Source of the DNA: Escherichia phage REP4
Direction: 5' to 3' (one strand)
DNA: 64,000 bases
Sequence record: OQ174503.1
In this document: piece after piece, positions 4,126 to 50,138 of the stretch
Numbering within the stretch: position 1 is the stretch's first letter
How the letters are laid out: each line of letters begins with the position of its first letter
The notes under the pieces: generated by a model
Databases searched by the model: none
Seen by the model: the letters and a program-made list of their open reading frames with translations, nothing else
What the model was told of the DNA's origin: nothing
Translations under genes and position numbers: made by a program

Positions 4126-4524
4126 TTATACTCTATTACTGGAAGCCAGTTGTAGTTTTATCTGCTCAATATCATCAGGGTTATCGATGACCGAAAAGCG
4201 TATTTCTACTATCAGAGTATAATCATCATAAACTGGTATTACATTAACTGCTAATTTATCAATACGTGGCTCGTAGTTTCTTACTGCGCTTTCAATGTTA
4301 CGCTCAACAGTATCAGCAGTAAGAGGAGTCATATTCTCAAAAAGCTGATCAGATAAATCACATCCAAATTCCGGGTCAAATGGTCTCGACCCTTTTCTAG
4401 TTGTAATAATTCCCAAAAGGCTATTTTTAATTGACCTTAATCCAAGGGATCTAGAAACATCTTTGTCCCAATCCATTTTCATTTCTGGGTCAATGTCAGA
4501 ATAAAGCTTATTAATATTTGCCAT
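4126..4524 (-). CDS. 25: gp25 baseplate wedge subunit (lysozyme-like fold)
   Basis: 132 aa, [15 protein letters not shown]...; T4 gp25-like. Confidence 0.95.
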   Translation of the reverse strand: MANINKLYSDIDPEMKMDWDKDVSRSLGLRSIKNSLLGIITTRKGSRPFDPEFGCDLSDQLFENMTPLTADTVERNIESAVRNYEPRIDKLAVNVIPVYDDYTLIVEIRFSVIDNPDDIEQIKLQLASSNRV

Positions 4525-27525: not shown

Positions 27526-29113
<1,588 letters not shown>

Positions 29114-29120
29114 AATAAAA

Positions 29121-29134
29121 TGGGCCTTGCGGCC
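29121..29134 (-). promoter_or_regulatory. Hairpin gggccGCAAggccc between the SD (GGAG) and start codon of denA
   Basis: SD lies 23 nt from the ATG in linear sequence but 9 nt if the 5-bp/tetraloop hairpin forms. Confidence 0.5.
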
Positions 29135-29140
29135 CACTCC

Positions 29141-30310
29141 TTAAAAATATTTTTTAAAACTCATCATAACTTTATCATCAACATCATTATCAATCTGTGC
29201 TACAAGGTAAGATGACAGTTCTACTTCTTGTGGCGCGGATTGAACATTATCAGAATTAAGATATTCACGAATCCAAGGATACGGGTGTTTAACCGGAGCA
29301 TCGGTAATTGGGCATGGAAGACCGCACTGTTTCATACGAGATACAGTTAAGTAATCAATAAAGCTCCACATGCTATTTGTATTTAATCCAGGAACATCGC
29401 CATCTTTAAATAAATGAACTGCCCAGTCTTTTTCTTGACGGTTAACTTCCATGAAAATATCAACTGCTTCTTGTTCACACTCTTGGGTGATTTTAACCCA
29501 TTCATCACCATCAGTGCCAAGTTGAAGTTGACGAATAATATATTGGGTGCCTTTAAGGTGAAGCTGCTCATCACGTGCAATGAACTTCATAATCTTGGCA
29601 TTACCTTCCATGATTTCCATGTTCTTATGGAAGTTAAAGGTACATGCGAAAGATACATAAAAACGAATAGCTTCCAATGCGTTGATTACGTGCAGGCAGA
29701 GGCAAAGAGATTTCATTAGTGCTCGTTTAGTACATTCAACAACTTTGCCTAACTCTTCTTTACGAAATCCTTCTGATAAAATTCCTTCATAATCTTCAAC
29801 CGCATTCTGATATTCACGAGTCTTAACTAGAACATCATCATAATAGCGACCGATAGATTCAGCACGTTTCATGATAGCTTCATCTAGTACAATCTCATCA
29901 AATACCTTCGATGGATCAGTATAAAGATTTCGCATGATATGAGTATATGAACGACTGTGAATAGTTTCACTAAAAGTCCATGTAGCAACCCATGTATCAA
30001 GACTTGGGTCTGAAATTAATGACATAAGTACAGCAGACGGTGCACGACCCTGAATGCTATCTAGAAGTGATTGATACTTCAAGTTATTAGTAAAAATATC
30101 TTGCTGATACTGAGGAAGCTTGTTAAATTGTGCAGCATCCATCATCAAGTTTACTTCTTCAGGACGCCAGAAAAATGATAATTGCTTTTCGGTTAAATCT
30201 TCAAAAACTTTATGGCGTTGAATATCATAACGCGCAATACCAAGACCTGAACCGAAGAACATAGGTTCTTTTAAAACATCAACTGGATTTGTATTAAAAA
30301 CTGTGCTCAT
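29141..30310 (-). CDS. nrdB: Ribonucleotide reductase small subunit NrdB (uninterrupted)
   Basis: 389 aa continuous ORF with di-iron/tyrosyl radical motifs; no intron. Confidence 0.95.
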   Translation of the reverse strand: MSTVFNTNPVDVLKEPMFFGSGLGIARYDIQRHKVFEDLTEKQLSFFWRPEEVNLMMDAAQFNKLPQYQQDIFTNNLKYQSLLDSIQGRAPSAVLMSLISDPSLDTWVATWTFSETIHSRSYTHIMRNLYTDPSKVFDEIVLDEAIMKRAESIGRYYDDVLVKTREYQNAVEDYEGILSEGFRKEELGKVVECTKRALMKSLCLCLHVINALEAIRFYVSFACTFNFHKNMEIMEGNAKIMKFIARDEQLHLKGTQYIIRQLQLGTDGDEWVKITQECEQEAVDIFMEVNRQEKDWAVHLFKDGDVPGLNTNSMWSFIDYLTVSRMKQCGLPCPITDAPVKHPYPWIREYLNSDNVQSAPQEVELSSYLVAQIDNDVDDKVMMSFKKYF

Positions 30311-30361
30311 AAATTTTCCGCTTAGTTAATAGATAGTGACTCGTCCGTGAGTCAAATTATA

Positions 30362-49317: not shown

Positions 49318-49335
49318 AGAGGGCTTCGGCCCTCT
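49318..49335 (+). terminator. UUCG-tetraloop hairpin agagggcTTCGgccctct after gene 37
   Basis: 7-bp stem; weak U-tract, may be an RNA-stability element rather than a terminator. Confidence 0.35.
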
Positions 49336-49346
49336 AAGGATTTTTA

Positions 49347-50138
49347 ATGGCAATTGTAGGTGTTCCTGGCTGGATTGGTGAATCTGCCGTGAATGAAACT
49401 GGACAACGTTGGATGGATGCTGCAATGAAAGCAGTTCGTGTTTCAGTTCCTGGTTGGATGAGCTCAATGGCTGGACAATCTAAAGAAGTATATTACAGCA
49501 TTGGTGCTAGCAATTCTTATAATAAAGATACGCTAATAAATTGGATAAAAGCCCAAGGAAGTACTCCTGTTGTTATTACTATTACAGGAAATATTGTTTC
49601 TCAATCTACTGGTGTTCCATGCTTAGATTTTCCTAGCTCATTAACTAATGCATATGTTACCTTAAATATTAATAGTGGGGTTCATGTATTAGGTCGGGGA
49701 GGAAATGGCGGAAGTAACTCTGCTGGTGGAGCAGGAGGAACTGCAATAAATAACGGAATTGGAACTCGTTTAAGAATAAACAATAATGGTATTATTGGTG
49801 GCGGCGGCGGTGGCGGCGCAGGTGCTAGATACAATCCTTTCCCTCAAATGGATATGAAATTTGGTGGCGGCGGAGGTCGTCCATTTGGCGCAGCTGGCGC
49901 AGCAGGAGGTGGCGCAGCTGCAGCATCTGCTGGTACAATTTCTGCTCCCGGTAAAGGCACTGTTTCTGGGGTTCACCATGGAGGAGATGGTGGAGATTTA
50001 GGAGCTGCTGGCAAATCTTCATATATTCAAGGTGGTACTGGAGGAACTATTCACTCGGGTGGCGCAGCAGGTAAAGCTGTTACTGGTAATGCTCCAACTT
50101 GGACTAAAGTTGGTACAATATATGGTGCAAGAGTATAA
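49347..50138 (+). CDS. 38: gp38 T2-type receptor-recognising adhesin with glycine-rich motifs
   Basis: 263 aa; poly-Gly motifs (GGGGGGGAGA, FGGGGGRPFGAAGAAGGG, GGDGGDLGAAG, GGTGGTIHSGGAAG) separating short variable segments. Confidence 0.85.
   Translation: MAIVGVPGWIGESAVNETGQRWMDAAMKAVRVSVPGWMSSMAGQSKEVYYSIGASNSYNKDTLINWIKAQGSTPVVITITGNIVSQSTGVPCLDFPSSLTNAYVTLNINSGVHVLGRGGNGGSNSAGGAGGTAINNGIGTRLRINNNGIIGGGGGGGAGARYNPFPQMDMKFGGGGGRPFGAAGAAGGGAAAASAGTISAPGKGTVSGVHHGGDGGDLGAAGKSSYIQGGTGGTIHSGGAAGKAVTGNAPTWTKVGTIYGARV

Follow-up and report, generated by a model that had tools for sequence, protein, structure and literature searches.

A candidate split ribosome-binding site bridged by a hairpin at the nrdB-denA junction of T-even phages

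We analysed a 64,000-nucleotide (nt) stretch of DNA from Escherichia phage REP4 (sequence record OQ174503.1; hereafter the window), in which the short junction between the nrdB and denA genes carries a hairpin that separates the Shine-Dalgarno (SD) sequence from the denA start codon. The window derives from a Tequatrovirus (T-even) genome: an 801-nt query around the site matched 500 records at an identity of at least 95%, and the 61-nt nrdB-denA junction was identical to that of phage T2. On the minus strand the gene order was nrdA-nrdB-denA-rnlA. According to the list of open reading frames (ORFs), nrdB spans 29141-30310 and encodes 389 amino acids without an intron, and near-identical records annotate it as the ribonucleotide reductase beta subunit. 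The denA gene (28703-29113) encodes endonuclease II of 136 amino acids, delimited on the basis of its conserved ATG and N-terminus, and the protein read from 29113 matched the T4 endonuclease II structure PDB 2WSH (E = 1.5e-87). Together with the synteny, this match showed that an initial annotation of the stretch had named both nrdB and denA correctly.

Read 5′ to 3′ on the minus strand, to which the junction coordinates refer, the nrdB stop codon UAA (29143-29141) overlaps the SD sequence AAGGAG (29142-29137), the core of which, GGAG, occupies 29140-29137. A single U (T in the DNA; 29136) is followed by the 5′ stem arm GGGCC (29135-29131), the GNRA tetraloop GCAA (29130-29127) and the 3′ stem arm GGCCC (29126-29122). 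The subsequent tail, AUUUUAUU in RNA and ATTTTATT in DNA (29121-29114), opens with an A that can pair with U29136, and the resulting hairpin U-GGGCC-GCAA-GGCCC-A (29136-29121) comprises six Watson-Crick pairs that emerged both from folding and from covariation in an alignment of homologues. The remainder of the tail is the U-rich spacer UUUUAUU (29120-29114), which lacks an SD and might possibly be the U-tract of a weak terminator, and which leads into the denA start codon AUG (29113-29111). The order of nrdB stop codon, SD, GC hairpin and denA AUG on the minus strand was thereby confirmed base for base as first annotated.

Two T4 reference records place the denA start elsewhere. In AF158101.6 and NC_000866.4, denA is annotated at 137517..137951, corresponding to 144 codons that begin with a GUG at 137949-137951. 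Its counterpart in the window (29137-29135, minus strand) lies 3 nt after the nrdB stop codon and in frame with denA, with no stop codon in between. If denA were to start there, as a protein of 144 amino acids, the hairpin would be coding sequence and initiation would proceed by termination-reinitiation, with no need for a split ribosome-binding site (RBS). Dhakavirus WG01 likewise has an in-frame ATG at the equivalent place, from which its record is annotated. However, an in-frame start at position -24 occurred in three lineages only (Tequatrovirus, Dhakavirus and Serratia phage 92A1), with the frame elsewhere being closed or startless, and the AUG together with the N-terminus MK(E/D/Q)IA was conserved in all genera sampled. 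Moreover, the GUG overlaps the SD (negative spacing) and is part of the stem's 5′ arm, and the eight extra codons are just a translation of the hairpin. For the functional enzyme that was crystallised (PDB 2WSH), the construct started at MKEIA, after a His-tag, and many other records annotate denA at 136 amino acids. We therefore regard initiation at the GUG as very unlikely. The comparison favours AUG 29113 as the best-supported denA start, and the GUG of the T4 reference records is a probable annotation error, WG01 being likewise annotated from its upstream ATG.

The last G of GGAG and the A of this AUG are separated by 23 nt in the linear sequence. The segment AAGGAGU formed a duplex of -7.9 kcal/mol with the 3′ end of 16S rRNA and was the sole anti-SD complement upstream of denA, since no such complement was found between the hairpin and the AUG in the window, where the best duplex amounted to +2.8 kcal/mol. 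With the hairpin folded out, 9 nt remain between SD and AUG if the stem has five base pairs, and 7 nt if the U29136-A29121 pair forms as well. Both the claim that 23 nt separate the only SD from the denA AUG and the claim that a five-pair GC stem with a GCAA loop shortens this distance to about 9 nt were thus borne out, the latter with the refinement introduced by the U-A pair. The core hairpin alone had a predicted stability of -11.6 kcal/mol, and the fold of its 71-nt context reached -16.8 kcal/mol (z-score -2.6 relative to dinucleotide shuffles). Scanned against Rfam with a permissive cut-off, the region 28600-29600 gave only chance matches below threshold; the best, L20_leader, scored 23 bits where the gathering score is 58.7. 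The ribosome_binding_site feature annotated in phage 55 turned out to be an automatic call of 3 nt within the hairpin and was set aside as uninformative.

Conservation of the junction was assessed with DenA as a probe in IMG/VR contigs and annotated phage records, from which nrdB-denA junctions were gathered. More than 10 Tevenvirinae genera contributed a total of 27 distinct sequences, the sampling covering Tequatrovirus, Mosigvirus, Dhakavirus, Gelderlandvirus, Winklervirus, Gaprivervirus, Karamvirus and Roskildevirus, plus Klebsiella and Serratia phages. The layout of stop codon, SD block, GC tetraloop hairpin, SD-free spacer and AUG was kept in all 27. Specifically, each junction displayed an AGGA, GGAG or AAGG block, followed after 0-2 nt by a GC stem of 4-7 Watson-Crick pairs, and the offset of the SD from the stem's 5′ foot never fell outside -2 to +2 nt. 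Most loops were UUCG, the others being GCAA, GUAA, UUAG, UUUG and, in one junction, the 5-nt loop CUUGA. The spacer from hairpin to AUG measured 6-10 nt (median 7), and the distance from SD to AUG was 19-28 nt in linear form and 4-10 nt when folded out. The linear spacing is therefore always beyond the presumed working range, and the predicted folded-out spacing always within it. No junction assessed had an SD at normal distance or an anti-SD complement in the spacer (duplex energies, best at least 0 kcal/mol), a result that excludes a few homologue rows in which GUAA at the stop codon had been taken for the loop, and with which a motif check in the window scan agreed.

In the alignment of these junctions, 95% of the stem cells were paired. 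Compensatory changes were found at four of the six stem pairs and involved GC to AU as well as GC to CG exchanges (e.g. GC 15 and AU 11, or GC 19, CG 5 and AU 2). The resulting covariation score was reached by none of 500 shuffles, and in a control in which the partners were slid by one column, pairing fell to 64-71%.

A conserved hairpin next to an SD might also act as a translational repressor, in which an extended helix, GGAGU:AUUUU, would sequester the SD until opened, like in the T4 genes e, soc and I-TevI. The RBS-sequestering hairpins of T4 e, soc, I-TevI and segB are accompanied by a late promoter inside the structure, which yields an open transcript (PMC2988022). These genes share with denA a hairpin at the translation initiation region that governs ribosome access (PMC2988022), but their stems contain the SD and/or the AUG, whereas the covarying stem of denA holds neither and no such promoter is present. 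In both the minimum free energy and the centroid fold of the T4-type sequence, four extra pairs indeed joined GGAGU to AUUUU, leaving the SD 12% unpaired, and several homologues can form similar pairs between the purines and the U-rich tail. In the covariation test, however, the extension pairs changed on one side only, lacked any compensatory change and left 19-41% of the cells unpaired, and a purine-rich SD beside a U-rich tail gives such pairing by composition alone. The extra pairs are, moreover, weak G-U and A-U pairs contributing about 5 kcal/mol, against the -7.9 kcal/mol of the SD:anti-SD duplex. There is no internal late promoter that would provide an unmasked transcript, unlike in the known masking cases (PMC2988022). 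Finally, the denA AUG never falls within the helix, and the covarying helix (29136-29121) excludes both the SD and the start codon. Masking of the SD by the extended helix is, in our estimation, highly improbable as the role of the element; the same SD-masking extension is predicted for the validated site of T4 gene 38.

The hairpin might, on the other hand, mainly be a 3′ element of nrdB, serving as a weak intrinsic terminator and/or as a barrier to 3′ exonucleases, like the intercistronic C(UUCG)G hairpins of T4. The low denA output would then stem from reinitiation after nrdB or from SD-independent initiation on the AU-rich spacer, and the AGGA upstream of the hairpin would be incidental. 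Low expression is plausible for a toxic nuclease such as DenA. The denA hairpin shares a small GC stem, a four-base loop and a U-rich 3′ flank with the intercistronic hairpins and weak intrinsic terminators of T4, and its GC stem and tetraloop followed by UUUUAUU resemble T4 terminators (PMC2988022; also PMC2790892), among which the internal terminator of mobE stops only about 30% of the transcripts (PMC2790892). In the window, the six-pair stem is followed by the tail A-UUUU-A-UU, with 6 U of 8, and the homologues have 2-7 U of 8. The window terminator scan did not list the denA hairpin, the G-T pairs allowed there extending the stem into the U-tract, but the programs behind other genome records did call it, and several deposited genomes label it a predicted terminator. 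Further points in favour of a 3′ element are the over-representation of GC tetraloop hairpins in the window, the occurrence of UAAGG in front of hairpins that have a proper SD downstream, and a junction in which denA can rely on stop-start coupling alone (all three are detailed below).

Nevertheless, the U-tract is short and interrupted in T4-type phages, and it is absent from two lineages (L052 and L053) whose spacer has just 2 U of 8 (GUAAAGCU), yet the SD, the hairpin and an 8-nt spacing are retained. Because these two lineages keep the layout without a U-rich spacer, the conserved constraint would seem to be the geometry rather than a terminator U-tract. A pure 3′-end element also explains neither the separate GGA(G/A) block nor the fixed 6-10 nt spacer found in all 27 junctions. 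Between nrdA and denA, neither a late promoter (TATAAATA) nor a MotA-type promoter was found, indicating that the transcripts serving denA run through the hairpin; with no promoter for denA downstream of the hairpin, efficient termination would silence the gene. Furthermore, the nrdB stop codon lies 5-6 nt from the stem, so that a ribosome terminating there would sit on the 5′ arm, and the hairpin could not form. The two roles are compatible and both functions can coexist, so the hairpin may at the same time serve as a weak terminator or as a 3′ stabiliser of the nrdB mRNA. That the element is mainly a 3′ element of nrdB, with denA served by reinitiation or SD-independent initiation, we consider rather unlikely.

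The window offered internal controls. Both strands were scanned for an SD at most 8 nt 5′ of a hairpin, followed by 4-12 SD-free nt and an ATG, with the additional requirements that the hairpin consist of Watson-Crick pairs only and that the ATG open an ORF of at least 50 amino acids. Only two sites were returned: denA, and the ATG at 4524 on the minus strand, which belongs to gene 25. In the latter (4555-4522, minus strand), GAGG (4555-4552) precedes the 7-bp (base pair) hairpin CUCAAAG-AAUU-CUUUGAG (4550-4533), followed by an 8-nt spacer and the AUG (4524-4522), with a linear spacing of 27 nt. Gene 25 of the window encodes 132 amino acids and lies downstream of gene 26, the stop codon of which overlaps the gene 25 start (UAAUG).

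Hairpins of the denA kind were unexpectedly frequent. Stems of five base pairs, all GC, capped by a tetraloop occurred 3 times in the window against 0.055 expected from dinucleotide shuffles, and tetraloop hairpins with a 4-bp GC stem occurred 9 times against 1.2 expected. Because these counts are far above the shuffle expectation, these hairpins form a class under selection in this genome. UUCG loops were present in eight of the nine, with the denA loop being of the GNRA type. The eight further GC-stem tetraloop hairpins start at 2915, 13837, 16014, 19957, 49321, 58315, 58544 and 63825 (plus-strand coordinates); all have UUCG on the coding strand and most directly follow stop codons. In those located before gene starts, at 2915-2940 and 49321-49347 on the plus strand, the SD comes after the hairpin, the opposite order to denA, where the SD comes before the hairpin and the spacer is SD-free. 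Among the GC tetraloop hairpins adjoining gene starts, considering those of the window and that of the Krischvirus denA (see below), the SD-before-hairpin order is, by this comparison, specific to nrdB-denA.

The gene 25 site is one of two published split RBS cases of T4, the other being that of gene 38 (PMC3014915). In T4 gene 38, the published linear SD-AUG spacing of 22 nt is cut to 5 nt by the hairpin (PMC3014915), and the 'accommodated' RBS of T4 gene 25, with a spacing of 27 nt, has been validated experimentally (Nivinskas 1999; Malys and Nivinskas 2009, summarised in PMC3014915). We found the T4 gene 37/38 junction to read UAAGGAGA-GGGGC-UUCG-GCCCU-UCUAAAU-AUG (L069 1118-1152; T4 NC_000866 about 159617-159651). 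As in denA, the upstream UAA overlaps the SD, and between SD and AUG lie a GC stem capped by a stable tetraloop and then a short spacer rich in A and U. The spacing is shortened from 22 to 5 nt in gene 38 and from 23 to 7-9 nt in denA, and the predicted hairpin stabilities are alike (-13.0 and -11.6 kcal/mol, respectively). The two differ in that gene 38 is a late tail-fibre assembly gene at another junction and denA an early nuclease gene, that the T4-type loop of denA is GCAA instead of UUCG, that the denA spacer is slightly longer, and that the gene 38 site has been validated whereas that of denA is a candidate.

Gene 25 shares with denA the succession of SD, hairpin, SD-free spacer (8 nt in gene 25) and AUG, with 27 nt of linear spacing in gene 25. 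Both sites are kept in close T-even phages and absent from remoter T4-like phages (gene 25: PMC3014915). The gene 25 hairpin, however, is AU-rich, weaker (-6.4 kcal/mol) and located within the gene 26 coding sequence, whereas the denA element is wholly intercistronic, and the upstream stop codon overlaps the start codon in gene 25 but the SD in denA. The near-identity of the gene 37/38 cassette and the recovery of gene 25 by the scan substantiated the resemblance to the discontinuous RBS of a few T4 genes that had been pointed out beforehand. The near-identity of the gene 37/38 and nrdB/denA cassettes raises the question of whether they are of independent origin or arose by copying. In the window itself, gene 38 is of the T2 type (263-amino-acid ORF, ATG 49347, plus strand), with AGAGGGC-UUCG-GCCCUCU followed by a normal SD, AAGGA (49321-49349). 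Since the SD follows the hairpin in this T2-type gene, the split RBS of the T4-type gene 38 is absent from the window.

Taken together, these observations make it fairly probable that the denA element is a discontinuous ('split' or 'accommodated') RBS. A split RBS is characterised by an SD that is too distant from the start codon in linear form (about 20 nt or more), the absence of an alternative SD at a functional distance, a stable hairpin located wholly between SD and AUG that brings their spacing to about 5-11 nt, and conservation of this structure. At denA the linear spacing is 23 nt (19-28 nt in the homologues), no alternative SD lies at a functional distance, the hairpin reduces the spacing to 7-9 nt (4-10 nt over the 27 junctions), and the structure is conserved with covariation among close T-even relatives. 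The comparative support for this reading is good, because the layout is conserved, the scan recovers gene 25 and the 37/38 cassette matches. The central proposal of the initial annotation, a split RBS bridged by a hairpin, thus gained support from sequence evidence, namely the geometry of the 27 junctions, the compensatory changes, the lack of a nearer SD and the parallels with gene 25 and gene 37/38.

Mechanistically, nrdB and denA would be co-transcribed, and the AAGGAG that overlaps the nrdB stop codon would, at 23 nt from the AUG, be too distant for direct SD-guided initiation. A compact six-pair hairpin (GNRA here, C(UUCG)G in most relatives) would fold between them, bringing the SD right up against the helix on its 5′ side and leaving 7-8 nt between the 3′ foot of the helix and the AUG. 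With the hairpin looped out, a 30S subunit bound to the SD by base pairing could then have the AUG in its P site. We infer that ribosomes could initiate at AUG 29113 via this geometry. The mechanism itself is already known; denA would be a further instance, absent from the searchable literature and implicitly contradicted by the T4 reference annotation.

Several observations weigh against a split RBS at denA. In one junction (L047; IMGVR_UViG_2974786931_000001, 395-405), the block of stop codon, SD, hairpin and spacer is wholly lost and the nrdB UGA overlaps the denA AUG (ATGA), which shows that the denA element would be dispensable and replaceable by coupling. SD-like UAAGG motifs 5′ of hairpins are also found where a normal SD follows, both in Krischvirus and at 2915 and 49321 in the window, so that an SD-like motif 5′ of a hairpin proves nothing by itself. 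The thermodynamic fold of the T4-type sequence pairs GGAGU with AUUUU, as described above, and this extended fold could mask the SD instead of presenting it. To this can be added the annotation of the hairpin as a terminator in several deposited genomes. Lastly, full-text literature searches returned neither a denA translation experiment nor a mention of a denA split RBS, although a prior listing in the T4 genome review or in the papers of Malys and Nivinskas is possible.

With regard to the deviating junctions, L047 seems to be recombinant, its T4-like nrdB 3′ end and its denA from another lineage suggesting as much. In Tulanevirus, denA overlaps its upstream ORF by 4 nt, and together with L047 this suggests that denA translation might generally be tied to the upstream cistron. 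Such coupling typically involves stop and start codons that overlap or lie a few nt apart. This layout is present in L047 and Tulanevirus, and the non-conserved GUG 3 nt after the nrdB stop codon would also conform to it, whereas in the window 27 nt extend from the nrdB UAA to the denA AUG. In Krischvirus E26 (L013 540-600), denA is not adjacent to nrdB; there, UAAGGUG-GGCGGGA-GAAA-UCCCGCC is followed 25 nt on by a normal SD (GAGGAAAGGAUA-AUG).

The SD itself might provide a further layer of control. In the SDs of early genes, GGAG is the cleavage motif of RegB (PMC9409239). This motif is present in the denA SD of the window (GGAG, 29140-29137), and many homologues have just GGA(A/C/U). Through its GGAG, denA translation could be sensitive to RegB.

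A more speculative extension, which we put forward only tentatively and consider doubtful, is that T-even phages have a reusable junction cassette, at 37/38 and nrdB/denA at least, composed of UAAGGAG, a stable hairpin with a tetraloop, some 7 nt and an AUG, in which the hairpin would do three translation-dependent jobs. A ribosome terminating at the upstream UAA would cover the SD and melt the 5′ arm, permitting neither transcription termination nor denA initiation. Once that ribosome leaves, the fast-folding hairpin would re-form, protect the upstream message and assemble the downstream RBS. The output of denA would then be set by the ribosome traffic on nrdB, and RegB, by cutting the same SD, would shut it off in GGAG-carrying phages.

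Natural hairpin-bridged SD sites usually cited are only two, those of T4 genes 38 and 25, and denA would be the third. With its 27 variants, its covariation and a natural deletion variant, the denA set is suited to deriving the geometric rules of such sites in terms of stem length, foot-to-AUG distance and loop type. For annotation, it bears on the two T4 reference records, which use a GUG unsupported by comparison, and on the many other records that label the hairpin a terminator only. The site also suggests how expression of a nuclease that degrades host DNA might be tied to the ribonucleotide reductase operon.

Upstream of the junction, nrdA occupies 32626-30362 on the minus strand (ORF list), and the gap between nrdA and nrdB (30311-30361, minus strand) measures just 51 nt. 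Given this short gap and the intronless nrdB (29141-30310), the window, like T2, lacks mobE, nrdB.1 and the T4 intron with I-TevIII. The middle promoter of T4 nrdB is located within mobE and is thus missing as well. Downstream, the mechanical ORF list has rnlA start at a GTG (28686), and the conserved MQELF start corresponds to the ATG at 28650 on the minus strand. The gap between denA and rnlA (28650-28702, minus strand) holds the only relaxed match to a MotA-box-like promoter in the search for a denA promoter, TGCTT...TATATT, which begins at 28702, upstream of rnlA.

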